A stretch of 16,162 nt of DNA, from the UHGV virus genome UHGV-0124814, one strand, 5' to 3'. Below are positions 38 to 16,162 of the stretch, piece by piece. How positions within the stretch are numbered: position 1 is the stretch's first letter; each line of letters opens with the position of its first letter. This stretch comes from a virus. The translations under genes were made by a program, and so were the position numbers. Below the pieces are notes generated by a model. The model searched no databases, was not told the origin of the DNA, and worked only from the letters and a program-made list of their open reading frames with translations.

Positions 38-706
38 ATGGTGAAATCAATGAAAAAAAACACAGATGATGGGGCTAAAATTTACACACCACTTACCCTA
101 AAGCTTTATGACTGGTGGGTTTTGGGAGTATCAAATCGGCTTGCATGGGGATGTCCTACAAAGGAACACCTTCTTCCACACTTTCTGGAACATTTAGGTA
201 ACAACCATCTGGATATTGGTGTTGGAACTGGGTTTTATCTTACTCACGTACCTGAGAGTAGTCTGATATCTTTAATGGATTTGAACGAAGCTAGCCTGAA
301 CGCGGCATCTACAAGGGCTGGGGAATCAAAAATTAAACATAAAATTAGCCATGATGTTTTTGAACCTTATCCCGCGGCGTTACATGGTCAATTTGATTCC
401 ATTTCCATGTTTTACCTTCTTCACTGCCTGCCTGGAAATATATCTACAAAAAGCTGTGTAATACGCAATGCGGCGCAGGCCTTAACTGACGATGGAACTC
501 TATACGGAGCCACAATTCTTGGCGATGGAGTTGTGCACAATAGCTTCGGTCAAAAACTGATGCGCATTTACAATCAGAAAGGCATCTTTTCAAACACAAA
601 AGATTCCGAAGAAGGCTTAACACATATACTCTCAGAGCATTTCGAGAATGTTAAAACCAAGGTTCAAGGTACTGTAGTAATGTTTTCCGCTTCAGGGAAA
701 AAATAG
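38..706 (+). CDS. Class I SAM-dependent methyltransferase, substrate unknown (cargo gene in the b-region position)
   Basis: 222-aa ORF; glycine-rich SAM-binding motif 'LDIGVGTGFYL', then 'LMDLNE' and 'FDSISMFYLLHCL'; visibly AT-rich; ATG at 38 lacks an obvious SD, alternative ATG at 50 is preceded by GGTGA. Confidence 0.7.
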   Translation: MVKSMKKNTDDGAKIYTPLTLKLYDWWVLGVSNRLAWGCPTKEHLLPHFLEHLGNNHLDIGVGTGFYLTHVPESSLISLMDLNEASLNAASTRAGESKIKHKISHDVFEPYPAALHGQFDSISMFYLLHCLPGNISTKSCVIRNAAQALTDDGTLYGATILGDGVVHNSFGQKLMRIYNQKGIFSNTKDSEEGLTHILSEHFENVKTKVQGTVVMFSASGKK

Positions 707-760: not shown

Positions 761-1345
761 TTACTCACTGACAGGGTTCGTAGGCCACTCAATATCAGGT
801 GCAGTTGATGTATCAACACGGTTCAGCAACACCCGATACTTCTTCCAGGCTTCCAGCAACGAGTTTTCTTCCTCCGTTGCGATTTCCAGATCTGCAGCAT
901 CCTGAAGCGGCGCAATATGCTCACTGGCTACCTGCATCAGGTTGTTTTTTGTTTCTTCCGCCTCCCGGATCCGGAACAGTTTTTCTGCTTCCGTATCCTT
1001 CACCCAGGCTGTGCCGTTCCACTTCTGAAACTCCCCTTCCGGCGATAACCAGGTAACATTTTCCGGTAACGGACCGAGTTCAGAAATAAATAACGCGTCC
1101 CCTGACGCTACGTCATAAACCGTTTTACCCCGATGGTCTTCAACGAGATGCCACGATGACTCATCACTGTTGAAAACAGCCACGAAGCCAGCCGGAATAT
1201 CTGGCGGTGCAATATAGGTACTGTTTGCAGGCAGACCTGTATGAGGTGGAATATATGCGTCACCTTCACCAATAAATTCATTAGTTCCGGCCAGCAGATT
1301 ATAAATTTTTATGGTCCGTGGTTGTTCACTCATTCTGAATGCCAT
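761..1345 (-). CDS. tfa: Tail fiber assembly protein Tfa
   Basis: 194-aa ORF '[31 protein letters not shown]...' matching lambda Tfa from memory; start ATG overlaps the stf stop (TAATG). Confidence 0.9.
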
Positions 1346-4192: not shown

Positions 4193-4792
4193 TCAGAAAC
4201 GGTATCCGATACCAACAATAAATGCATCCGTTCGCCAGTCGCCACTACCGGAACCTTCATAAGCAAGGTCAATGGTCACGGATTCGGTCGGATTAAACTG
4301 CACGCCAGCCCCCCACGCCAGAGACGTGTTGCTGTGGCGACCGTCATCACTTCCGGTCAGCACATCGTGCGTTTTCCCCTTGTTGTCAGTTACGCGGAGA
4401 TAATCCCCGGAGAAAGTCGAAATACGGCTGTAAGCCACACCCGCCATCGCATACGCGCTGAACCATTCATTCACGCGCACAGACGGCCCCGCCATTACGC
4501 TGAACCAGCGGTTACGAACGGAATCTTCATGCCAGCGGGTATCGCTGTAACGGGTCAGCTGGCGATTCTTGTCTCCTGCATAGCTGAATGACGTCACCAG
4601 CCCCAGTGTGTCCGTAAACTCATAACGGTATTTCACGTTAATCCCGTTCAGATCATCACTGCCGGGGACGTTCGTCGAGGCATGAAGATACCCCGCGCTC
4701 AGCGTGGACTGATGTTCAGACGCCCATGCAGGCGCACCGGATACGGCCAGACAAATGGCTGCGGACAAAATTGCTGCACAAACTTTACGCAT
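4193..4792 (-). CDS. lom: Lom outer-membrane protein (Ail/Lom/PagC family beta-barrel)
   Basis: 199-aa ORF 'MRKVCAAILSAAICLAVSGAPAWASEHQSTLSAGYLH...GIGYRF' with signal peptide and C-terminal aromatic residue; near-identical to lambda Lom as recalled; SD GAGAGG upstream. Confidence 0.9.
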   Translation of the reverse strand: MRKVCAAILSAAICLAVSGAPAWASEHQSTLSAGYLHASTNVPGSDDLNGINVKYRYEFTDTLGLVTSFSYAGDKNRQLTRYSDTRWHEDSVRNRWFSVMAGPSVRVNEWFSAYAMAGVAYSRISTFSGDYLRVTDNKGKTHDVLTGSDDGRHSNTSLAWGAGVQFNPTESVTIDLAYEGSGSGDWRTDAFIVGIGYRF

Positions 4793-4862
4793 AATTACCT
4801 CTCGCTTTTCTGCAATAAAAAAGGCGTCACTCCTGACGCCCTTTATTGGGGTTATAAATATT

Positions 4863-6026
4863 TCAACGAATACTGATGCCGGAAGCGGCTTTTTTGGTCA
4901 CAATCACCGTACAGTCGGTGATATTGCCTGCCCCCTGATTGCCTTTCTGGAAAATCTTAAACTCCAGAGTGACGCTACCACCACCACTAGGCATATCAAT
5001 AACTGCACTGTAACTACCGGGAATGGCCCCTTTAGTTTCTCTGGATGCGATTAATACGCCGTTTTTGCGAACTTCAAAACCATAACCCGTGTATCGCGTG
5101 CCTCCTGGGTTATTTCCGCTCCCCGGATCGTCATACGCTATACCGTTAAAAATAATGGGCGGAATAATAATCTGGCGGTCAAAGTTATGATCATCGCTGA
5201 TGGTGACTGTAACCGTACCGTTTGGTGTTTCCGTGTTACCCCACGTACCGACTTTTTTCGGGAAGGCTTTTGATACAGCTTTAACGAAATCCCCTCTGAC
5301 CTGGGTCGCCTCCAGCATGCCCTTAATCGTACAGTTCTGGTTAATCTTGACATTGTTGAGCGTTCCTGAGTTCGCATTCACACTGCCACTGATATCCGCA
5401 TTTTTAGCGGTCAGCTTTCCGTCTGATGTCAGGGAAAATACCGGAGGACTGCCACCGCTGGTAATGGTGGGGGCCGTCAGGCGCTTCAGGAACACGTCGT
5501 TCATGAATATCTGGTTGCCCTGCGCCACAAACATCGGCGTTTCATTCCCGTTTGCCGGGTCAATAAACGCGATACGGTTAGCGGCAACCAGAAACTGGCT
5601 CAGCTTGCCTTCCTCCGTGTCCTCCATGCTGAGGCCAATACCCGCGACATAATGTTTGCCGTCTTTGGTCTGCTCAATTTTGACGCCCCACATGGCATTC
5701 CATTTATCGTTAGCGTCCTTCCACTCTTTCGAAAACTCCTCCAGTCTGCTGGCGTTATCTTCCGTCAGCTCAAAGTTTTCCAGCAGTTCCTTGCCGAGAT
5801 GCGTTTTATTGATCAACCCTTTATAAAAATTCAGATAACCTTCCGCATCATCGCTCGCCCGACCGACGGCCTCCACAAATGCCGATTTACCAACGGTGTT
5901 CACGCTGCGGATATAAAAGTAATAATCATAACCTGGCTTAATATTGCTACTGGCGGCTATCCAGTACAGCGCCGTACCAAGATAACGCGCGCTGGTTTCA
6001 ACCTGCCTGATATCGATAAGCGGATT
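4863..6026 (-). pseudogene. J: C-terminal fragment (~387 codons) of tail tip/host-specificity protein J; N-terminal part of the gene deleted
   Basis: Open frame from 6026 down to the stop at 4863 with no ATG at its 5' end (first candidate is GTG at 5903); translation resembles the lambda J C-terminus as recalled. Confidence 0.8.
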
Positions 6027-6352
6027 TTATAGGCACGGGTATCACCTTCATTAAACCACACCAGCAGCGCCTGCTGCCCCTGCTCTCCGGGCATCCACGC
6101 CAGCGTGAAGCTGGTATCTCCGGCGGATTTCTGACCCTGCCCGGTCGCGGTCCAGTCCGCATCTTCATCATCGAGATAACTGTCGTCATAGGACTCAGCG
6201 GTCAGTTCGCCGGGCGTCAGGTCTTTAACTTTAGCCAGACGCGACCAGTCAACGTCTGAAAGCGGGTTCGCATAAGGGTCGCCGCTCCCGTTATAAACCC
6301 ACAGGGTGGTTCCGGCACCTTTCACCGGTATTGCTGGATTTGGTACAGGCAT
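5957..6352 (-). pseudogene. V: Truncated major tail tube protein V (N-terminal ~120 aa, then out-of-frame read-through into J sequence)
   Basis: '[20 protein letters not shown]...TRAYKIR' matches the lambda gpV N-terminus as recalled, then changes to '[20 protein letters not shown]' and stops; lambda V is about twice as long. Confidence 0.8.
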
Positions 6353-6359
6353 ATCGTCC

Positions 6360-6755
6360 TCACATTTCATAGGTAATGACATAAGTCAGATCGGCAGAAC
6401 TCCACAGGCCCGCATCATCGTCGCGCCGGTAGTCATAGCCGCTGGCCACCATACTGGTGATCAAATCTGACAGTGCCGGGACATCGCTCATCACCGGATA
6501 AATCCGGGACTCCATCCACGAATCCAGCTCTGAATCCGGCACCTGAGCAGGCAGGAAAACTTCAATATGCAGCTCCGCCTGCCAGGTATCACTGTCCAGC
6601 TCTTCGCCCGTGTATTCAGCGCCGGTGAGATAAACGGCAATTGCCGGAAAATCCGCCTCATCAAAAACAGCGGGGCGACCATCAAAAAGCGTCGCCCCGG
6701 TGTCATGCTTCTCCAGTGCATCCAGTACGGCTGCACGGAGTTCAGTATGTTTCAT
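6360..6755 (-). CDS. U: Minor tail protein U (tail terminator), apparently intact
   Basis: 131-aa ORF '[36 protein letters not shown]...' matching lambda gpU in sequence and length; start ATG overlaps the upstream stop (ATGA). Confidence 0.9.
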
Positions 6756-7165
6756 CGCTTTATTACCATTCTCAGTTGATGCTGCAGCGCATAGCCCAGC
6801 TCTTTCGGAAGACGTTCACGCCGTATCCGTTCAATATTCTGTTTAAACGCCGTGGTAAGCGGCACCGCCATCGGGATTTTCACCACATCAATGGGGTAAC
6901 GGTTTTTCCCGGCCACACGCTGCATGACATGCCACCGGCCATTTTTCAGTTGCTGAATAAACGCGCCGGGAATACGACGGTTTCCCACCACAAGCACGCT
7001 GCCGCCACCTTTCAGGGATGAACGCTGCCCCTTTTTACGACGTCTGCGGCGGGAAAGGACAACCCGCGCGTTACCCAGCTTGATTACGGGCAAATCCTGC
7101 CAGTTCTGAATGGTACGGATACTCGCGCCGAAAATGTCAGCCAGCTGCTTTTTGTTGACTTCCAT
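6752..7165 (-). pseudogene. In-frame fusion of the first 23 codons of terminase small subunit Nu1 to the C-terminal part of a Z-like tail completion protein
   Basis: 'MEVNKKQLADIFGASIRTIQNWQ' is the lambda Nu1 N-terminus, then sequence switches at ~7096 to a basic tail ('DLPVIKLGNARVVLSRRRRRKKGQ...') that I believe is the gpZ C-terminus; ATG sits at the conserved distance from cos. Confidence 0.7.
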
Positions 7166-7375
7166 TGTTCATTCCACGGACAAAAACAGAGAAAGGAAAC
7201 GACAGAGGCCAAAAAGCCCGTTTTCAGCACCTGTCGTTTCCTTTCTTTTCAGAGGGTATTTTAAATAAAAACATTAAGTTATGACGAAGAAGAACGGAAA
7301 CGCCTTAAACCGGAAAATTTTCATAAATAGCGAAAACCCGCGAGGTCGCCGCCCCGTAACCTGTCGGATCGCCGG
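7166..7375 (-). other. Lambda-type cos packaging site (cosQ side ~7345-7375, cosN 12-nt end at 7333-7344, cosB toward Nu1)
   Basis: Reverse complement of 7333-7344 is GGGCGGCGACCT, flanked by 'GATCCGACAGGTTACG' on one side and 'CGCGGGTTTTCGCTATTTATGAAAATTTTCCGG...' leading to the Nu1 ATG on the other, as in the lambda left end; sequence diverges from lambda beyond ~7395. Confidence 0.8.
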
Positions 7376-7566
7376 AAAGGACCCACCAAAAATGATAATG
7401 ATTATCAAATACGTTTATCACACTGATATTCAGAATCACTACTGAAAGACTCCCTTTGTGGTGCGCGAGGGATGCGCATAAAAAAACCACCAGCAAATGC
7501 CAGTGGCTAAAGATATTCATTGCGAATAACCATCACAAAACAACTTAACTCGTGAGGGTAGAAATT

Positions 7567-7971
7567 TTACTCGAGGCCAAATTTCTTCTTTAAATAGGCC
7601 TTCGTTAACTCCAGCCCAACATCTTTGATTGTACTCAAAGGGGCATCGCTCATTGACTTTAATTTCTCAAAAACCGTAGGTTCATTTAATGCCTGGGCGA
7701 ATTCTTGTCCCTGCGCAGATAGTCGCACGTCGGTACCCATATCTAGCATATGGCCACAATGGCGCATGTAGCCCAGTTTAGTTATGTCATCCGTTATTAG
7801 ATCTTTATTACTGATATAACCTTGCTCAATAAGAAGTAGATAATGAAACATCCCTTCATTCGAGCAGATATCGTACCCCGCATTAGCTAAGTCTTTTGTA
7901 GATATAAAGGGAGTTTTCGCTTTCAAAAATACCTCAAGCATCCCCTTCATGTATTCTAAATTTTTAACCAC
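7567..7971 (-). CDS. Hypothetical protein, 134 aa, AT-rich moron
   Basis: GTG start at 7971 preceded by strong SD (TAAGGAGGTTTTT-GTG); no family recognised. Confidence 0.55.
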   Translation of the reverse strand: MVKNLEYMKGMLEVFLKAKTPFISTKDLANAGYDICSNEGMFHYLLLIEQGYISNKDLITDDITKLGYMRHCGHMLDMGTDVRLSAQGQEFAQALNEPTVFEKLKSMSDAPLSTIKDVGLELTKAYLKKKFGLE

Positions 7972-8106
7972 AAAAACCTCCTTAGGATAATTGGAGGTCT
8001 AGAATACCGTTTGCAAGCACGTTGATAAATCATTATCACAGGCACTCAATGAATGCCTGCTGTAATTGCGTACGGTAATGAACGTAAAAAACCGCCCGAG
8101 GTATAT

Positions 8107-8331
8107 TTAGACATTAGATGGCGCTTTGTCAGTATAGACCCGGTACGCCCTGACAAACATCCCGTTACATTCAGAGTCCGCCTTGATATACGCCAATTCG
8201 TAACCCCGATGCTTTAGCTCTTCACGAGCTCTTTTCTCTTCCTTAGCCATGAAGTTAAGATCTTTAATTTCTGAGTAGGTATATGTTCCCACTATAAAAT
8301 CTCTGCCTGGCCGTCCATTTATCAGTTCCAT
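8107..8331 (-). CDS. Hypothetical protein, 74 aa, AT-rich moron (ORF-track version extends to a TTG at 8397)
   Basis: ATG at 8331 preceded by GGGAGGA SD; protein 'MELINGRPGRDFIVGTYTYSEIKDLNFMAKEEKRAREELKHRGYELAYIKADSECNGMFVRAYRVYTDKAPSNV'; no family recognised. Confidence 0.5.
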   Translation of the reverse strand: MELINGRPGRDFIVGTYTYSEIKDLNFMAKEEKRAREELKHRGYELAYIKADSECNGMFVRAYRVYTDKAPSNV

Positions 8332-8424
8332 GTGTCCTCCCAAAAAGTTGGTAGTCAGAACATACCATGCTAAGCGAGGTGAAAGCACCTTTATCAAGCC
8401 CCCCGCAGATAGACTTTGTAATGG

Positions 8425-8712
8425 CTACTTCTTCAGAAATGATTCGATGAACTCACGCCGGGGATGACGATAGTTCAGAATATCTTCTGGCATCCTCATA
8501 AAGCGGTTGTTGCCGTCTTTGGCAGTAACGAAACAGCAGTGAACTCCGCAGACATCCGTTTTGATCGTGTCGCCATACTCAAAAAGCAACTGCGCCATCT
8601 TCTCTTGCCATTCTTGCGGCATAGCCTCCATGAATACTCTCGGCATCACGCAGAACGACGCATGCGTCAGGCCAAACCACAATTGCAGGTCTTTACGATA
8701 TTCTTCATCCAT
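8425..8712 (-). CDS. Hypothetical Cys-containing protein, 95 aa ('...DVCGVHCCF...'), moron
   Basis: ATG at 8712 with AAGG ~10 nt upstream, lying 19 nt downstream of a terminator-like hairpin; no family recognised. Confidence 0.5.
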   Translation of the reverse strand: MDEEYRKDLQLWFGLTHASFCVMPRVFMEAMPQEWQEKMAQLLFEYGDTIKTDVCGVHCCFVTAKDGNNRFMRMPEDILNYRHPRREFIESFLKK

Positions 8713-8730
8713 CGTCTTTACCTTTGTTGC

Positions 8731-8756
8731 AATAAAAAGCCCCGCGAATGCGAGGC
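8731..8756 (-). terminator. Rho-independent terminator-like hairpin (GCCUCGC-AUUC-GCGGGGC then UUUUUAUU) between Rz/Rz1 and the moron ORFs
   Basis: 7-bp GC-rich stem (one G-U pair), 4-nt loop and T-tract read on the - strand. Confidence 0.5.
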
Positions 8757-8930
8757 TAAATCCTGGTGTTTGTGATGACTGGCTCTTATCTCAACGCAGC
8801 CCCTTACCGCGCGCAAGATGCTCAATATCAAGCATCAGCAATGAGATGTTAAATCTGGATTCACTCCAGAAGTGATCACCACCCTGTCTACAGAGCCAGA
8901 TGTGAAGGATGATGAGTAAAATTATCGCTA

Positions 8931-9398
8931 TCATCGAAGGCATTGCGTCCTGATGTATTCCTGAAGCGTTCTCAGTGCTGTTTGGTCGCGGATAATTCCG
9001 TCCCGGATACCGAGAACGTTTCGTCCAGCAACTGGAGAGAGTTCGACGGTGGCATCATTGCCCATGCCGGAGGCGCTGGAGGTTTCGGCTGAGGATGGCA
9101 CAGGGCATTTTCCTTTGACGAGCACCCTGCCACCATTATCAAGCTTGCGACGAAGAGCATCATTTTCAGCTTTCGCATCAGCTAACTCCTTCGTGTATTT
9201 TGCATCGAGCGCAGCAACATCACGCTGACGCATCTGCATGTCAGTAATTGCCGCGTTCGCCAGCTTCAGTTCTCTGACATTTTTGTCGCGCTGGGCTTTG
9301 TAGGTAATGGCGTTATCACGGTAATGATTCAGCCCCAGACTAAGCACACCACAGGCTACCAGCAGGACAATAATCACCACACACAGAACACGGTTCAT
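8931..9398 (-). CDS. Rz: Rz i-spanin
   Basis: From ATG at 9398 (SD GGTGGTGA): '[17 protein letters not shown]...[60 protein letters not shown]...' closely resembling lambda Rz; the longer track ORF starts at an upstream codon. Confidence 0.85.
8972..9178 (-). CDS. Rz1: Rz1 o-spanin lipoprotein, embedded in Rz in the +1 frame
   Basis: 68-aa ORF '[21 protein letters not shown]...' with lipobox 'VAGC' and proline-rich stretch '[11 protein letters not shown]'; embedded position typical of Rz1. Confidence 0.8.
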
Positions 9399-9497
9399 AT
9401 CACCACCAACGGATTGTCCAGACCAGAACAGCAATGGCCACAATACGAATGGCAAATGCCATTGCCCGAATAAGTTCAGCACTCATCTTTTTAAAGT

Positions 9498-10433
9498 TCA
9501 CGATTTCAGCGCAATGACCAGTTTTGCCAGCCCATACAGCATCGGAGACACAGCAATAGCGTATGTATTTTTCCAGTAATACGTCGTGTCACCACAAATC
9601 CACGGCACATTTACAGCACTGCCACCATGACACTGCGCGTTAAACACAGTGAGGTCAGCACGAAACTGCTTCAGCATGGCTGTAAACAGCGCAGGTTGCT
9701 GTGCGTAGGTGGCGGCGCTCATGTCAAACTCTCCCTGCATCCAGCACACCGCCAGCAACACATTTTTCGGGTTCTTCTGTAATGCCGCTTTGGTGCGTGC
9801 GATCAGGTCCTGATATAACGGTTTACCCACACCCCAGCGTGCCGAATCCTGGCTGGCCCCCGTGTCCGCACTGAATGTCCCCTCCGCGCCCTGGGTGAAT
9901 GCCGAACCACCACGACAGCATGGTACCAGCAGGATCCCCGCGTTATTCGGGATATACGGAAGCAGTTTTTTGGCAATATGTAAGCCCTGGCCGACACAGC
10001 CGTACTGCCCTTTGCTCAGGTCTGCCTTCGGATGATTCAGCGTACTCATATCCTGCACATCATGCAGACAGTGGTCAGCCGGGATGATGTCGTTATACGT
10101 ACAACTCTCTCCACCCGGAGTTACCGTGCTGCGGCGCGCCAGCTGTTTAATGCGCGGATCCGGAGCATCGTAAGAATCCGGTAACGGAAGCCCTTCACCG
10201 TAGGCCATGCCGTTGGACTGTCCGGCAAGCACAACCACGTAGAACCAGTCCGGCTCAGATGAAGGGCCGACCTGTGGATCTCCTTCAATAGCCACCGCCT
10301 GCATCAGTGTGTACGGCGTAATGGCAACCGGTCCGCCATATGGCTGCCAGCCCTCTTTCAGTTTGTGTGTCAGCTTTTCCGCAAGGTCTGACGGCGACGC
10401 CGCCCTGACAACATCATAGTGTTTAAATGCCAT
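9498..10433 (-). CDS. Prophage NanS-p-like sialate 9-O-acetylesterase (N-terminal DUF1737-like segment plus esterase core), probably C-terminally truncated
   Basis: 311-aa ORF with 'VVLAGQSNGMAYGEGLPLPD', 'GILLVPCCRGGSAF', 'CWMQGEFD', 'WICGDTTYYWK' resembling E. coli NanS/YjhS as recalled; strong SD GGGAGGA; ORF ends ~100 nt before Rz. Confidence 0.8.
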   Translation of the reverse strand: MAFKHYDVVRAASPSDLAEKLTHKLKEGWQPYGGPVAITPYTLMQAVAIEGDPQVGPSSEPDWFYVVVLAGQSNGMAYGEGLPLPDSYDAPDPRIKQLARRSTVTPGGESCTYNDIIPADHCLHDVQDMSTLNHPKADLSKGQYGCVGQGLHIAKKLLPYIPNNAGILLVPCCRGGSAFTQGAEGTFSADTGASQDSARWGVGKPLYQDLIARTKAALQKNPKNVLLAVCWMQGEFDMSAATYAQQPALFTAMLKQFRADLTVFNAQCHGGSAVNVPWICGDTTYYWKNTYAIAVSPMLYGLAKLVIALKS

Positions 10434-10626
10434 GAATCCTCCCGGCCGGGATAATATTGTGAGTAAAATGAGGAGCGGGCTGAAGTCCGGAAGTTACAGG
10501 ACAATGGCAGAAGAGAGACGACAGCCCGCAATTCGAAAAAGACCGCGCAGTTGCGCAGAGTGATTACTATGGGGTATTATTCGCCAGCTGAAATATTACT
10601 TCACGTTTTATTGTTTATTCCTTGCC

Positions 10627-10655
10627 GCCCGCGTCTCCCAGCGCGGGCTTTTTTT
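10627..10655 (+). terminator. Rho-independent terminator on + strand (GCCCGCG-TCTCCCA-CGCGGGC then TTTTTTT)
   Basis: Perfect 7-bp GC stem with 7-T run read directly. Confidence 0.4.
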
Positions 10656-10658
10656 GCC

Positions 10659-10686
10659 CACAAGAAAGCCCCTCCGGAGAGGGGCT
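10659..10686 (-). terminator. Terminator-like hairpin on - strand (AGCCCCTC-UCCG-GAGGGGCU then UUUCUUGU), back-to-back with the + strand terminator
   Basis: 8-bp stem with tetraloop and T-rich tail on the - strand, downstream of the tRNA cluster and upstream of the esterase gene. Confidence 0.35.
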
Positions 10687-10923
10687 GGAGAGTGGCGCTA
10701 TGTGCCATTGCATGGTGCCGGGTGCCTCCCGGTGAATTCAGTACCAGCACCTGAATCCGCGATTATCCCATATACCTACTCGCTGATTGCCCCTCCGCAC
10801 AGGGGGATTCACCATGCCAGTTTCTTTTAACAAACTCCCCGCAAACCAGACAACAGTCAACCGTCTGAATTGTGAGACATTTAAAAAAAAAGGCCCGCAA
10901 AAGCGAGCCAGGGAAAATAAGTG

Positions 10924-11000
10924 TGGCGCGTTGTACTGGATTCGAACCAGTGACCGATTGCTTAGAAGGCAATTGCTCTGTCCGGCTGAGCTAACAACGC
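10924..11000 (-). tRNA. tRNA-Arg (anticodon TCT)
   Basis: Reverse complement folds as cloverleaf: acceptor GCGTTGT/ACAACGC, D-arm GCTC..GAGC, anticodon stem ATTGC/GCAAT with loop CTTCTAA, T-arm ACTGG-TTCGAAT-CCAGT, encoded CCA. Confidence 0.85.
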
Positions 11001-11013
11001 ATGATGCAGATAA

Positions 11014-11090
11014 TGGACCGCCATCGGGGACTTGAACCCCGCGCAGCCAGCTTCGAAGGCTGGCGCTCTTTCCTGATGAGCTAATGGCGG
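11014..11090 (-). tRNA. tRNA-Arg (anticodon TCG)
   Basis: Cloverleaf: acceptor CCGCCAT/ATGGCGG, D-arm GCTC..GAGC, anticodon stem CCAGC/GCTGG with loop CTTCGAA, T-arm CGGGG-TTCAAGT-CCCCG, encoded CCA. Confidence 0.8.
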
Positions 11091-11097
11091 TATGTGA

Positions 11098-11173
11098 TGG
11101 TGGCCCTTGCTGGATTTGAACCAGCGACCTGGCGATTATGAGTCGCTCGCTCTCACCACTGAGCTAAAGGGCC
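11098..11173 (-). tRNA. tRNA-Ile2-like (anticodon CAT; could formally be Met)
   Basis: Cloverleaf: acceptor GGCCCTT/AAGGGCC, anticodon loop CTCATAA, T-arm GCTGG-TTCAAAT-CCAGC, CCA; overall very similar to E. coli tRNA-Ile2 as recalled. Confidence 0.8.
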
Positions 11174-11222
11174 GGAAGCAGAATAATAATGGTGCGTAAT
11201 TAATTCTGCAATCTCATCCGTT

Positions 11223-11678
11223 TCAAACGATTAAATCCTGAACTTCCCTGACTGTCTGCTCAAAACGTCCGGTCTCCAGTTCAACGCCAATCGCACGACG
11301 CCCGAGCGCCAGTGCCGCTTTTACCGTTGAACCTGAGCCCATAAAAAAATCTGCAACCTGGTCTCCCGGACGACTGCTCGCGTTGATTATCTGCTGCAAC
11401 ATTTCTGCCGGTTTTTCGCACGGATGTTTCCCTGGATAGTACTGCACCGGTTTATACGTCCACACATCGGTGTACGGCACCTGCACCGTCACACCGAAAT
11501 ACCTCCGCAAATTTTTATATTCACTCAGCAGTTCCATATACTGCCGGTTCAGCTCACTGTATGTGCTGACCAGTTGGTAATGGGACTTTTCCAGTTCTCC
11601 CCGCTGATGTTTCTCTTCTGCCACCCGGGCAAACAGCGACTGTAATTTCAGATAATCGCTTTCGTTCGGTATCCGGCG
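11223..11678 (-). pseudogene. C-terminal fragment of a phage DNA N6-adenine/N4-cytosine methyltransferase; N-terminal half absent
   Basis: Frame open from 11678 with no ATG (first start-like codon is GTG at 11624); contains 'HPCEKP' and C-terminal SAM motif 'FFMGSGST' but no DPPY-type motif. Confidence 0.65.
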
Positions 11679-11753
11679 TTAATTGTTAACTGGTTAACGT
11701 CACCTGGAGGCACCAGGCACCGCATCACAAAATTCATTGTTGAGGACGCGATA

Positions 11754-11942
11754 ATGGAAACGTTATTACCAAACGTTAATACGTCTGAAGGTTGTTTTGA
11801 AATTGGTGTCACTATCAGTAACCCTGTATTTACTGAAGATGCCATTAACAAGAGAAAACACGAACGGGAGCTATTAAATAAAATATGCATTCTTTCAATG
11901 CTGGCCCGTTTACGTCCGATACAAAAAGGATGCTGGCAATGA
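11754..11942 (+). CDS. Hypothetical small protein, 62 aa
   Basis: ATG preceded by SD (GAGGACGCGATA-ATG); stop overlaps the next ATG (ATGA); no family recognised. Confidence 0.45.
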   Translation: METLLPNVNTSEGCFEIGVTISNPVFTEDAINKRKHERELLNKICILSMLARLRPIQKGCWQ

Positions 11943-12130
11943 ATACAGCATTTGCACTTGTTCTGACAGTTTTTCTTGTTTCCGGAGAGCCAGTTGATAT
12001 TGCAGTCAGTGTTCACAGGACAATGCAGGAGTGTGTGACTGCAGCAACCGAACAGAAAATTCCCGGTAACTGTTACCCGGTCGATAAAGTTATTCACCAG
12101 GATAATAACGAAATCCCGGCAGGTCTTTAA
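11939..12130 (+). CDS. Hypothetical small protein, 63 aa, with N-terminal hydrophobic segment (signal peptide or membrane anchor) and two Cys
   Basis: ATG at 11939 with AAAGGA 8 nt upstream; 'MNTAFALVLTVFLVSGEPVDIAVSV...'; the track ORF starts 18 codons earlier at a less likely ATG. Confidence 0.45.
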   Translation: MNTAFALVLTVFLVSGEPVDIAVSVHRTMQECVTAATEQKIPGNCYPVDKVIHQDNNEIPAGL

Positions 12131-12222
12131 AACAGTTCCGTAATAAACATCCGATTTCATTCTTATATGCCAGCAATGGCAGGGATTTGTTCACCCTTAA
12201 ATCTGTAATGAGGTAAAACAAA

Positions 12223-14694
12223 ATGAGTAAAGTCTTTATTTGCGCCGCCATTCCGGACGAACAGGCAATAAAGGAAGAAGGTGCAGTCGCTGTAGCCACT
12301 GCCATTGAAGCTGGCGACGAACGCCGTGCTCGAGCAAAATTTCACTGGCAATTCCTGGAACATTATCCGGCTGCTCAGGACTGCGCTTATAAATTTCTTG
12401 TTTGCGAGGATAAACCCGGTATACCCCGCCCTGCCCTCGATTCCTGGGATGCTGAATATATGCAGGAAAACCGCTGGGATGAGGAGTCTGCTTCCTTTGT
12501 CCCGGTTGAGACTGAATCCGATCCGATGAACGTCACTTTTGACAAGCTGGCCCCTGAAGTACAGAACGCTGTCATGGTTAAGTTCGACACATGTGAAAAC
12601 ATCACCGTTGATATGGTTATTAGCGCACAGGAATTGTTGCAGGAAGACATGGCAACATTCGACGGACATATCGTTGAAGCGTTGATGAAAATGCCAGATG
12701 TTAACGCCATGTATCCGGAGCTTAAGCTGCATGCCATCGGGTGGGTTAAGCATAAATGTAAGCCTGGTGCCAAATGGCCCGAAATTCAGGCAGAGATGCG
12801 CATCTGGAAAAAACGTCGCGAAGGTGAACGCAAGGAAACCGGAAAATACACGTCTGTTGTTGATCTCGCCCGCGCCAGAACCAATCAACAGCACACTGAA
12901 AATTCAACAGGAAAAATCAACCCGGTCATTGCTGCCATTCATCGCGAATACAAGCAGACATGGAAAACACTGGATGACGAACTGGCCTACGCTCTCTGGC
13001 CTGGTGATGTGGATGCCGGAAACATTGACGGCAGCATCCATCGCTGGGCAAAAAATGAAGTTATCGACAACGACCGCGAAGACTGGAAGCGTATCTCGGC
13101 ATCAATGCGCAAACAGCCTGATGCCCTTCGCTACGACCGCCAGACTATTTTTGGCCTTGTCCGTGAACGTCCGATCGACATTCACAAAGACCCTGTGGCA
13201 CTGAACAAATACATTACTGAATACCTGACTACAAAGGGCGTGTTTGAAGATGAAGGAACAAATCAGAGCGCAACTGATACTCTCTCGTCGCCAGTACCAG
13301 AAACTGATGCAGTGGAAACGGCAATTCCGGACAACGAAAAAACCGAATGCAAAGTGGAAGTCGAACCATCTGTAGAACGTGAGGGGCCGTTCTACTTCCT
13401 CTTCACCGACAAGGATGGCGAAAAATACGGTCGCGCAAACAAACTTTCTGGTCTGGATAAGGCGCTGTCTGCTGGGGCTACTGAAATCACGAAAGAAGAA
13501 TATTTCGCCCGCAAAAACGGTACATACTCAGGTTCACAACAAAATACTGGTGCATCTGACACGACCGCACAACCAGGGTCAGTAAAAGTTACCGCTGACG
13601 AAGTAAACAAAATTATGCAGGCAGCCAATATCAGCCAGCCTGACGCCGATGAACTGCTTGCAGTATCACGTGGTGAATTTGTTGAAGGGATTAGCGACCC
13701 GAATGATCCGAAATGGGTAAAGGGGATTGAAACCCGCGATTCTGTAAACCAGAACCAGCAAGAATCGGAACAGAACGACCAGAAAGCGGAACAAAACAGC
13801 CCAAATGCGTTACAAAACGAGCCAGAAACGAAACAGCCTGAATCAGTGGCGCAACAGGAAGTGGAAAAAGTCTGCACCGCCTGCGGTCAGACCGGCGGCG
13901 GCAACTGCCCTGATTGTGGCGCGGTAATGGGCGACGCAACATACCAGGAAACATTCGATGAAGAGTATCAGCCTGAAGTTCAGGAAGATGATCCGGAGGA
14001 AATGGAAGGCGCTGAACATCCACACAAGGAGAACACTGGCGGCAATAAGCATCACGATAGCGATAATGAAACTGGCGAGACGGCAGATCACTCAATTAAG
14101 GTGAACGGTCATCAAGAAATCACATCCACCAGCAGGACGTGTGACCATCTAATGATCGACCTTGAAACCATGGGAAAAAATCCTGATGCCCCGATCATCT
14201 CAATAGGTGCAATATTTTTCGATCCGCAAACCGGAGATATGGGACCGGAATTTAGTAAGACTATCGATCTGGAAACTGCTGGCGGAGTCATTGATCGGGA
14301 CACCATTAAATGGTGGCTTAAGCAATCACGCGAAGCGCAATCTGCCATTATGACCGATGAAATCCCGTTAGATGATGCACTGTTACAATTGCGGGAATTT
14401 ATCGACGAAAACTCCGGTGAATTTTTTGTTCAGGTTTGGGGAAATGGAGCCAACTTCGACAACACGATTTTGCGCCGTTCATACGAACGGCAGGGGATCC
14501 CCTGCCCGTGGCGTTACTACAACGATCGCGATGTACGCACAATCGTTGAGCTGGGGAAAGCCATAGACTTCGATGCCAGAACGGCTATTCCATTCGAAGG
14601 TGAGCGCCATAATGCACTTGATGACGCCCGTTACCAGGCAAAATACGTTTCAGCTATCTGGCAAAAACTGATCCCGAGTCAGGCTGATTTTTAA
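12223..14694 (+). CDS. Large prophage early-region protein with C-terminal DEDDh (DnaQ-like) 3'-5' exonuclease domain, central Cys4 zinc-ribbon-like motif and acidic linker
   Basis: 823-aa ORF with SD GAGGT; C-terminal motifs 'MIDLETMG', 'WGNGANFDNT', 'HNALDDARY'; 'CTACGQTGGGNCPDCG'; position immediately upstream of xis/int. Confidence 0.8.
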   Translation: MSKVFICAAIPDEQAIKEEGAVAVATAIEAGDERRARAKFHWQFLEHYPAAQDCAYKFLVCEDKPGIPRPALDSWDAEYMQENRWDEESASFVPVETESDPMNVTFDKLAPEVQNAVMVKFDTCENITVDMVISAQELLQEDMATFDGHIVEALMKMPDVNAMYPELKLHAIGWVKHKCKPGAKWPEIQAEMRIWKKRREGERKETGKYTSVVDLARARTNQQHTENSTGKINPVIAAIHREYKQTWKTLDDELAYALWPGDVDAGNIDGSIHRWAKNEVIDNDREDWKRISASMRKQPDALRYDRQTIFGLVRERPIDIHKDPVALNKYITEYLTTKGVFEDEGTNQSATDTLSSPVPETDAVETAIPDNEKTECKVEVEPSVEREGPFYFLFTDKDGEKYGRANKLSGLDKALSAGATEITKEEYFARKNGTYSGSQQNTGASDTTAQPGSVKVTADEVNKIMQAANISQPDADELLAVSRGEFVEGISDPNDPKWVKGIETRDSVNQNQQESEQNDQKAEQNSPNALQNEPETKQPESVAQQEVEKVCTACGQTGGGNCPDCGAVMGDATYQETFDEEYQPEVQEDDPEEMEGAEHPHKENTGGNKHHDSDNETGETADHSIKVNGHQEITSTSRTCDHLMIDLETMGKNPDAPIISIGAIFFDPQTGDMGPEFSKTIDLETAGGVIDRDTIKWWLKQSREAQSAIMTDEIPLDDALLQLREFIDENSGEFFVQVWGNGANFDNTILRRSYERQGIPCPWRYYNDRDVRTIVELGKAIDFDARTAIPFEGERHNALDDARYQAKYVSAIWQKLIPSQADF

Positions 14695-14755
14695 TGTTCA
14701 ACCGTCGCCAGTTGTCGTTGATATTCTGCAACTGGCGCGTTCCGGAGTGATAGCC

Positions 14756-15025
14756 ATGAGCGAACAGTACCTGATAACGCTCGACGAGTGGAAACCAAAA
14801 CGGTTCAGTCTCCCAATAACAAACACTACCCTGGTGAAATACGGAAAACTAGGATACATCGTTCCAAGACCACAAAAAATTCGTGGGCGTTGGCTGATAG
14901 ATCGCCGAGCAGTATTTGTTGGGCCTGGTGAAACGGGAATTGCGCCGGAAATTCATACTGGCGATGATGATGCACTGAAGGAGATTTTAACTCATGTCAC
15001 CGAGGCCACGAAAAAACAGCACTGA
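14756..15025 (+). CDS. xis: Excisionase (Xis-like)
   Basis: 89-aa ORF from ATG at 14756 (SD GGAG 8 nt upstream), immediately upstream of and overlapping int by 32 nt. Confidence 0.65.
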   Translation: MSEQYLITLDEWKPKRFSLPITNTTLVKYGKLGYIVPRPQKIRGRWLIDRRAVFVGPGETGIAPEIHTGDDDALKEILTHVTEATKKQH

Positions 15026-16112
15026 CGTAGCCGGTCTTTACGAAAAGTTTGATCGCAGAACTGGCAGAGTTTACTACCAGTATAAAAATCCTGTGACTGG
15101 AAAATTTCACGGACTCGGAACAGACAAAGGTAAGGCAGAAAAAATCGCTTCCACAGCCAATCAGCGAATAGCTGCAGCAGAAGCTGAATATTTCATGCGC
15201 AAAATTGATGAAAGTCCGTCAGCAACAAAACGTCGGGGTATCAGATTAAAGGCATGGGTTGATCGATATCTGAAAATACAGGACACGCGACTGAAAAATG
15301 GAGATATTGCAGCTACAACTCACAAAGAAAAAACTCGAATGGCTGCATACCTGGTTTCCCGTCTGGGAAACCCCCCATTGAAAGAACTGGAAGTAAGAGA
15401 CTTTGCATTAATACTGGATGAGTGGCTGGATAAAGACATGGTCAGCACAGCGAGAGTAAATCGTGGATTATGGGTTGATATTTATAAAGAAGCACAGCAT
15501 GCAGGGGAAGTTCCTCCTGGATGGAATCCTCCGGAGGCTACCCGTAAACCGATCCCTAAAGTAACCAGAGCCAGGCTCACCATGGAAGACTGGCAAAAAA
15601 TTTACAATGCAACGCCTGAAAAACACTTTATCCGTAACGCAATGCTTCTTGCGATTGTTACTGGTCAGCGCCGTGATGACATTTGCCACATGCGTTTTTC
15701 AGATGTGTGGAACGAACACTTGCATATCACCCAGGGAAAAACCGGAATGCGTCTGGCGTTACCGCTTACACTACGCTGTGATGCCATTGGGATAACGTTA
15801 AAAGAAGTTATTGATGGGTGCCGAGACAGAATATTAAGTCCATATCTAATCCATAGTCGGCACCAGAAACAACCGAAGCCGATGAGTAAAGACAACCTGA
15901 GCGACTACTTTGCCAAAGCACGGGATCTGGCTGGGATAATTCCACCAGCAGGAAAAACTCCGCCAACATTTCATGAACAACGCTCTCTATCAGAACGGCT
16001 GTACCGTGCACAGGGTATCGATACAAAAACATTACTAGGACATAAAGTCCAGGCAACCACCGATCGCTATAACGATACTCGAGGTCAGGAATGGGTTAAG
16101 CTGGTTATTTGA
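14994..16112 (+). CDS. int: Tyrosine site-specific integrase, lambda Int family
   Basis: 372-aa ORF; C-terminal catalytic region '...TGQRRDDICHMRFSDV...', 'HEQRSLSERLY', 'LLGHKVQATTDRYNDTRGQEW' parallels lambda Int RHR-Y motifs; distinct from lambda Int itself. Confidence 0.9.
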   Translation: MSPRPRKNSTDVAGLYEKFDRRTGRVYYQYKNPVTGKFHGLGTDKGKAEKIASTANQRIAAAEAEYFMRKIDESPSATKRRGIRLKAWVDRYLKIQDTRLKNGDIAATTHKEKTRMAAYLVSRLGNPPLKELEVRDFALILDEWLDKDMVSTARVNRGLWVDIYKEAQHAGEVPPGWNPPEATRKPIPKVTRARLTMEDWQKIYNATPEKHFIRNAMLLAIVTGQRRDDICHMRFSDVWNEHLHITQGKTGMRLALPLTLRCDAIGITLKEVIDGCRDRILSPYLIHSRHQKQPKPMSKDNLSDYFAKARDLAGIIPPAGKTPPTFHEQRSLSERLYRAQGIDTKTLLGHKVQATTDRYNDTRGQEWVKLVI

Positions 16113-16162
16113 CAAACACCATATGGAATATCCGTCACCATCTCAGGAAAAAAGTGTTGTAA

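Follow-up and report, generated by a model that had tools for sequence, protein, structure and literature searches.

A prophage exonuclease gene and a DNA methylase stump lie close together in the 16,162-nt stretch of DNA analysed here (the window; virus genome UHGV-0124814), at a place where a lambdoid genome would be expected to carry its immunity, replication and late-control genes. The locus raises the question of whether a large deletion has passed through it and, if so, where the ends of that deletion lie and how it came about. A preliminary description of the sequence had called it the scar of a deletion that removed immunity, replication and Q. Comparison with related prophages bears this out: the middle of the methylase gene is fused to the sequence that immediately precedes the early-left genes, and neither repressor, replication genes nor late activator remains between the two. 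Taken as a whole, the locus is very probably a prophage remnant at potB/potC that underwent a microhomology-mediated deletion with a reused dicB-side end.

Architecture of a decayed prophage

The window is a heavily decayed Qin/mEp460-type lambdoid prophage of E. coli, inserted between potB and potC. The remnant measures ~16.7 kb overall, the window being its right-hand two thirds and reading opposite to the conventional lambda map. The gene order is tail fibre, Lom, J', V', U, Z', Rz, esterase', tRNAs and methylase', followed by dicB, exo, xis and int (Table 1). As in other defective lambdoid prophages, an integrase and an excisionase lie at one end, by the chromosomal att site, and essential modules are missing: no repressor, replication gene, Q, holin, endolysin, terminase, portal or capsid gene was found among the window ORFs (ORF list and Pfam). 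In sister loci, potC lies ~170 bp past the window end, and in L001 (loci compared are given L numbers) potB lies at the opposite flank. The tRNA with a CAU anticodon is tRNA-Ile according to the RefSeq annotation of the 100%-identical stretch of L001; in intact relatives the tRNA trio is downstream of Q and the methylase gene.

Table 1. Annotated features of the window, with position, strand and basis of assignment
Feature	Position	Strand	Basis
Side tail fibre and its assembly protein; Lom; U	window left part	minus	ORF/Pfam annotation
Rz	8931–9482	minus	ORF/Pfam annotation
Truncated SASA/NanS-type esterase, 311 aa	9498–10433	minus	618 aa in L002
Three tRNA genes: Arg-UCU, Arg-UCG, CAU-anticodon tRNA	10924–11173	minus	ARAGORN, Rfam
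Beta-class N6/N4 DNA methyltransferase stump	11223–11671	minus	100% identity to residues 202–349 of 349-aa sister methyltransferase
Deletion junction, GTA microhomology (3 bp)	11669–11671		window against both sides of L001; blastn overlaps
Conserved dicB leader (B-right), left edge at recurrent breakpoint	11672–11753	plus	sequence comparison
dicB, cell-division inhibitor, 62 aa, intact	11754–11942	plus	PF05358 positions 1–62 of 62, E = 1.7e-37
DUF1482 (ydfD-like), 63 aa	11939–12130	plus	PF07358; gene calls in L003–L008
Prophage exonuclease, 823 aa: YdfE_N, YdfE_C, Rv2179c-like 3'-5' exonuclease domain	12223–14694	plus	Pfam
Excisionase	14756–15025	plus	Pfam Exc on longer ORF; 89-aa call in sister loci; RefSeq 'excisionase' in L001
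Lambda-type tyrosine integrase (Arm-DNA-bind_1 and Phage_integrase)	14994–16112	plus	Pfam

The late region carries further scars. A chimeric ORF at 6752–7165 (minus strand) fuses Nu1 (1–33) to Z (74–190): its first ~31 residues are those of the terminase small subunit Nu1 and the rest is Z (profile positions 74–190 of 190). This fusion is a second deletion scar, and the terminase, the portal and all head genes are gone. At 4863–6382 (minus strand), the tail tube protein V is truncated (profile positions 1–94 of 135) and a 346-aa remnant of J, the tip protein, comes after it, which implies a third internal deletion spanning G, T, H, M, L, K, I and most of J. Between 8931 and 10433 (minus strand), the cut esterase stops 15 bp from Rz/Rz1, with holin and endolysin absent in between, an arrangement that indicates a fourth scar.

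Above the Rfam gathering score, the sRNA family STnc100 matches at 10656–10846 (minus strand), between the tRNAs and the esterase, and IS009, likewise an sRNA family, matches at 804–1002 (minus strand) inside the tail-fibre-assembly gene. Past the latter gene, at the left end of the prophage, a class I SAM-dependent methyltransferase gene (38–706, plus strand) is opposed to the late genes and looks like a cargo ('moron') gene.

The junction and the extent of the loss

The stump and the exonuclease ORF are 551 bp apart, in line with the ~600 bp given in the preliminary description. These 551 bp are not the scar. They hold two complete small genes that had been overlooked, dicB and a DUF1482 gene (Pfam), both of them retained. 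Alignment to related prophages, proposed earlier as a check, mapped the breakpoints to the methylase side of these genes and revealed the 3-bp microhomology GTA. The joint reads TTCGGTA/TCCGGCG, the parents being TTCGGTA/GCTGCC on the methylase side and CTCTGTA/TCCGGCG on the dicB side, with the crossover within the common GTA. Window positions 10699–11671 equal L001 11800–12772 at 100% identity, and 11666–16162 correspond to L001 19906–24402; the two-sided match also holds against L003, L007 and L009. A short sequence common to both parents is thus present at the joint and long homology is absent, as in microhomology-mediated illegitimate recombination.

The identical junction (100%) occurs in four other assemblies (L004, L005, L006 and L008; two isolate assemblies and two metagenomes) and is therefore not an assembly artefact. 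It was present in 0 of 5,426 complete E. coli genomes, its pattern was not found in GTDB species representatives, and neither the exact window junction nor the exact L002 junction had a match in IMG/VR.

On the methylase side, the gene was described as lacking its start and N-terminal half, and this proved correct. The stump matches PF01555 over profile positions 113–219 of 221 only (Pfam). Catalytic motif IV, DPPY (residues 35–38 of the full protein), is missing; AdoMet-binding motif I (FxGxG) is retained as FMGSG (residues 310–314). The sole remaining in-frame start is a GTG at 11624, which would yield 133 aa, and the window sequence has no Shine-Dalgarno sequence ahead of it. With both the start codon and the DPPY motif lost, the remnant is, by its sequence, a pseudogene. 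The 349-aa full-length methylase is present in L001, L003, L007 and L009, and the gene runs on intact across the breakpoint in 1,864 of the 5,426 complete E. coli genomes; at the same point, ~124 IMG/VR loci continue into the full methylase gene.

Sister loci were gathered by looking up the exact exonuclease protein, and all of them are at potB/potC. The 823-aa exonuclease is identical in these prophages, and 0–2 SNPs separate them from the window over up to 13 kb right of the junction. Between methylase and dicB, L009 (Logan ERR10124697) has the order methylase (349), a 65-aa gene, Q, RusA, a YdaT::DUF968 fusion, Cro, S24 repressor, DUF1391 and DicF. In L003 (GCA_021449925.1), the order is methylase, 65-aa gene, Q, RusA, DUF968, a 92-aa gene, Hok and DUF551, and L007 (GCA_000703525.1) has the same content. 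L001 (NZ_CP148277, a dog isolate, 98% identical) has a fuller early region and has lost late genes. It shows the reciprocal state: in L001 11370–12000, compared with window 4550–10698, ~6.1 kb of the late region is deleted and a Lom stump lies near the tRNAs. Three early-region deletions coexist at 0–2 SNPs over 8–13 kb, namely the YdaT::DUF968 fusion (L009), DUF551 to dicB (L003 and L007) and methylase to dicB (the window, L004–L006 and L008), from which it follows that decay within one clone was very rapid.

Compared with its relatives, the window is missing 7,139 bp (L001), 5,641 bp (L009) or 4,722 bp (L003). These relatives appear to carry different deletions of their own, as L002, L003 and L009 suggest, so the ancestral interval would have exceeded the 4.7–7.1-kb gap; the intact ancestor probably held roughly 10–11 kb. 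The functional phage mEp460_ev081, with ~9.7 kb from the dicB leader to the end of Q, fits this estimate. The earlier figure of ~10 kb missing therefore stands for a fully intact ancestor only; against the nearest relatives, the loss is 4.7–7.1 kb. The list of lambda genes once assigned to the interval (bet, gam, kil, cIII, N, cII, O, P) does not apply, the region being of Qin/mEp460 type, with the early order DicF, ydfA-like DUF1391, S24 repressor, Cro, YdaT, replisome organiser, DUF551, Hok, DUF968, RusA and Q.

We propose that a RecA-independent, microhomology-mediated (illegitimate) deletion joined codon 201/202 of the late-operon methylase to a point 84 nt upstream of dicB, the crossover falling inside the GTA trinucleotide common to both parents. 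Such an event would have removed the 5' half of the methylase gene, the 65-aa gene, Q and RusA, what was still left of the nin, replication and immunity region, and, together with the promoter of the early-left genes, DicF and the ydfABC-like genes. The immediate parent is not among the loci compared, and one step or several would both be possible. A purely random left end would also not predict L002 (E. coli DLI.5a, NZ_CP103972), an unrelated prophage that reuses the methylase-side breakpoint to the nucleotide: its methylase stump runs, at 6771–6777, into the middle of RusA, TTCGGTA/TCCGGTGG. Among ~120 IMG/VR loci, no other event was seen at this breakpoint.

A stepwise origin would take two or three deletions. 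An L003-type event (DUF551-upstream to dicB leader), an L002-type event (methylase to RusA) or both would come first, and the last step would be a deletion between TATCCGG-containing junctions sharing a 7–8-bp repeat. Both window ends do match other deletions to the nucleotide (the dicB side in L003 and L007, the methylase side in L002), the intermediate junctions would carry GTATCCGG or TTATCCGG and hence 7–8 bp of homology for the last step, and L003 and L007 are members of the window's own clone. We nevertheless consider this course unlikely. A derived SNP common to L003 and L007 is missing in the window type, which is the same as L009 over 7,870 bp; no intermediate with both junctions was found; and more events are required. 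An L002-like donor is itself improbable, because the window's identity to L002 on the methylase side is only 96%, against 100% to L001, L003 and L009 up to the junction.

That no deletion took place, the locus being a natural module order or a full-length methylase with an unusual start (both raised in the preliminary description as ways in which it might be wrong) or else an assembly artefact, is next to impossible: sister prophages and mEp460_ev081 have 5–10 kb here, the stump comprises residues 202–349 of 349 with a partial Pfam match and DPPY missing, the ~124 IMG/VR loci and 1,864 complete genomes run into the full gene, and the junction is identical in four independent assemblies.

The breakpoint upstream of dicB

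The microhomology-mediated deletion that we favour has a dicB-side end, site B, at TA/TCCGGCGTTAATTG, 84 nt upstream of dicB, and the same end was used by the distinct deletion of L003 and L007. We scanned IMG/VR and JGI metagenomes for the exact 28-nt B-right sequence preceded by TA, with a non-natural base at −4. At least 14 distinct left partners are joined at TA/TCCGGCG, at the same nucleotide (window 11670–11672; L003, L028, L047, L171 and L349–L360). The partners lie in the methylase gene, DUF968, the hairpin upstream of DUF551, replication and SAM-methylase genes, a Hok-region site and a tail-fibre gene, so that the other deletion end ranges over >20 kb. Prophages with site-B junctions have in common only the dicB–DUF1482–exonuclease block, and their integrase modules differ. 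All events are collinear deletions; no inversions were seen.

This survey was pattern-restricted and included two positional controls. A scan of the same kind for a TA 10 nt right of site B returned natural sequence variants only and no deletion junctions, and a TA 17 nt left of site B gave no matches. A non-A base before TCCGG occurred in 87 loci, all natural variants, with no junction among them. The undeleted native sequence was recovered for all 14 partners, and in each of them TA stands exactly at the crossover. The native partner sites resemble site B on the deleted side, with the consensus TA-N-C-C (C at +2 in 12/14 and at +3 in 9/14); partner and site B match at 32 of 70 positions from +1 to +5 (p = 1e-4), and partner sites show a G-N-TA-N-C tendency.

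Judged by these junction sequences, the dicB-side end is not random but a hot spot of many independent deletions. It is possibly a new one; in a literature coverage that was incomplete, nothing relevant to a deletion hot spot in the dicB leader was found. A plausible reading, which we would place somewhat short of probable, is that the TA upstream of dicB acts as a sequence- or structure-determined fragile site of DicB-type lambdoid prophages and nucleates the one-step loss of immunity, replication and Q, the window scar being one instance. Such a site would be a built-in route for disarming prophages while dicB, the exonuclease and int stay.

In intact relatives, site B lies between the half-helices CGGA·TCCG and ACAG·CTGT, which close a variable spacer downstream of DicF. 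Both half-helices sit within a 15-bp perfect inverted repeat, and the predicted DNA fold has a z-score of −3.5. In the window, the right arm of the repeat is present at 11718–11732 (CACCGCATCACAAAA) and the left arm is deleted. A leftward-growing nascent strand might pause at the structured site B; the paused 3' end (...CCGGATA) could then re-pair at a distant TA-N-CC, where synthesis would resume. Such a replication pause and template switch would account for the terminal TA being invariant and the pairing behind it weaker. Based on a predicted DNA fold and the microhomology asymmetry, it is the mechanism that we tentatively put first, as a possible rather than a likely origin of the hot spot.

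The main alternative to the template switch is a site-specific nick or nuclease. An enzyme (nickase or nuclease, serine recombinase or TA-targeting transposase) encoded by the host, by the conserved dicB–exo module or by the DUF968/HNH gene would cleave both the TA upstream of dicB and pseudo-sites of the form TA-N-CC, with the deletions arising from subsequent repair or strand exchange. One fixed end with varying partners, the invariant TA (14/14) and the G-N-TA-N-C tendency would suit such an enzyme, as would events in prophages with only the dicB–DUF1482–exo block in common, and DUF968 has an HNH-nuclease-like domain. Even so, enzymatic cutting seems quite doubtful. No IS, transposase or invertase is found at or near the window junction. 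Site B is non-palindromic, and TATCCGG is not a hot spot elsewhere; the breakpoint bears no relation to the att core, and the integrase varies from event to event. Moreover, only collinear deletions occur, inversions being absent, and the imperfect extended similarity resembles base-pairing more than protein recognition.

Several other candidates were rejected. Against an Int-mediated deletion at a secondary att site, the breakpoint shows no relationship to TTTTGGAGAAAG, the sole repeat common to the prophage ends, and xis/int modules differ between junctions. IS-adjacent deletion, or IS excision with loss of flanking DNA, is countered by position 11672 itself: neither the window nor any of the 14 junction types has an IS, a transposase ORF or a terminal repeat there, and no IS stood at site B in the loci carrying this site retrieved from IMG/VR. 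The TATCCGG motif as such is not the cause, its copies in RusA, the exonuclease gene and the DUF551 region having natural flanks, except in L002. Nor are the methylase and RusA breakpoints general hot spots, with ~120 IMG/VR loci each, all natural. The quasi-site TTCTCTGTATCC, which we take to resemble a Cin/Pin-type invertase half-site, predicts a crossover dinucleotide 3–5 nt from the observed TA, and an invertase is absent from the window. Nor can selection account for an end precise to a single base; its effect, if any, should be to preserve the DicF terminator.

Consequences and relation to known prophages

The dicBF operon of Qin is served by one promoter only, dicBp, which lies upstream of ydfA and is repressed by DicA (PMC10448788). 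Of the features of this Qin-type operon, the window has the DicB protein and lacks both DicF and a dicBp under a DicA/CI-like repressor. DicF has an Rfam match in L001 (76.7 bits) and none in the window; in L001 it lies ~90 nt left of the breakpoint, inside the deleted segment. No ORF of the window encodes a repressor or Cro; in the sister prophage L009, the deleted interval contains genes for Cro and an S24 repressor. Promoter-like sites around the joint did not exceed chance.

The formerly divergent operons would now stand back to back with no promoter between them. The dicB–DUF1482–exo–xis–int block would be left without its promoter, and its genes are expected to be silent or reliant on read-through or internal promoters. 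Loss of the repressor would have been tolerated because the promoter of the toxic dicB was presumably lost together with it. With Q and the replication genes missing and only fragments of the lysis, head and tail genes left, the element should be unable on its own to be induced, to replicate, to activate late genes or to be packaged. How the late-strand genes are expressed, for which internal promoters or a helper phage had been suggested, is a largely moot question, since the late region consists of fragments (the Nu1::Z fusion, truncated V and a J fragment) and the holin, endolysin, terminase and capsid genes are absent. An intact promoterless dicB, which encodes a toxic division inhibitor and phage-defence protein, could be reactivated by any upstream insertion.

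Short-homology illegitimate recombination and replication slippage are familiar in E. coli from the hot spots of lambda bio transducing phages and from hairpin-stimulated deletions. The window type shares with them joints that look RecA-independent, 2–3 bp of perfect plus a few bp of imperfect homology, and recurrent sites. It departs from them in having one end fixed to a single nucleotide across many prophages, with the other spread over >20 kb. As such, the deletion scar is ordinary prophage decay of a well-known kind, and it documents the disarming of one E. coli clone's potB/potC prophage. If prophage inactivation were channelled through one fragile position, domestication would be partly deterministic rather than random; the junctions would then serve as cheap lineage markers, and the locus would lend itself, as a natural and selectable system, to work on illegitimate recombination driven by replication pauses or nicks in E. 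coli.

Qin of E. coli K-12 (dicA/dicC – ydfABC-dicF-dicB-ydfD-ydfE – intQ) has the same early-left module as the window, with dicB, a ydfD-like DUF1482 gene and a ydfE-family exonuclease by xis/int, and is likewise a decayed lambdoid remnant. Qin retains dicA, dicC, dicBp, ydfABC and DicF (PMC10448788), whereas the window keeps only dicB and 82 nt of leader; the window differs further in its full-length exonuclease (823 aa) and its insertion at potB/potC.

Defective remnants are also well documented in the O157 Sakai prophage pool, Sp1–Sp18 (Asadulghani et al. 2009, PMC2669165). These prophages are similarly riddled with deletions, some being without repressor and morphogenesis genes but with int and xis (PMC2669165). 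The methylase–tRNA–esterase late module of the window is typical of Sakai-pool phages. Unlike that pool, the window has a junction present in 0/5,426 complete E. coli genomes and formed without the involvement of IS elements, and a breakpoint common to independent deletions is not mentioned in the accessible part of the Sakai report (PMC2669165).

The functional lambdoid phage mEp460_ev081 (LR597641) has a dicB–DUF1482–exonuclease segment 97% identical to that of the window, with the same leader right of the breakpoint. It differs in keeping ~9.7 kb of immunity, replication, nin and Q, and the methylase/tRNA module is absent at the matching place.

The sequence CCGGCGTTAA is common to the dicB leader and to the leader upstream of the ydfA-like gene (L009 5149 and 6196). 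In L353, a deletion between the CCGGCGTTAA repeats has placed dicB directly behind the early-left promoter region.
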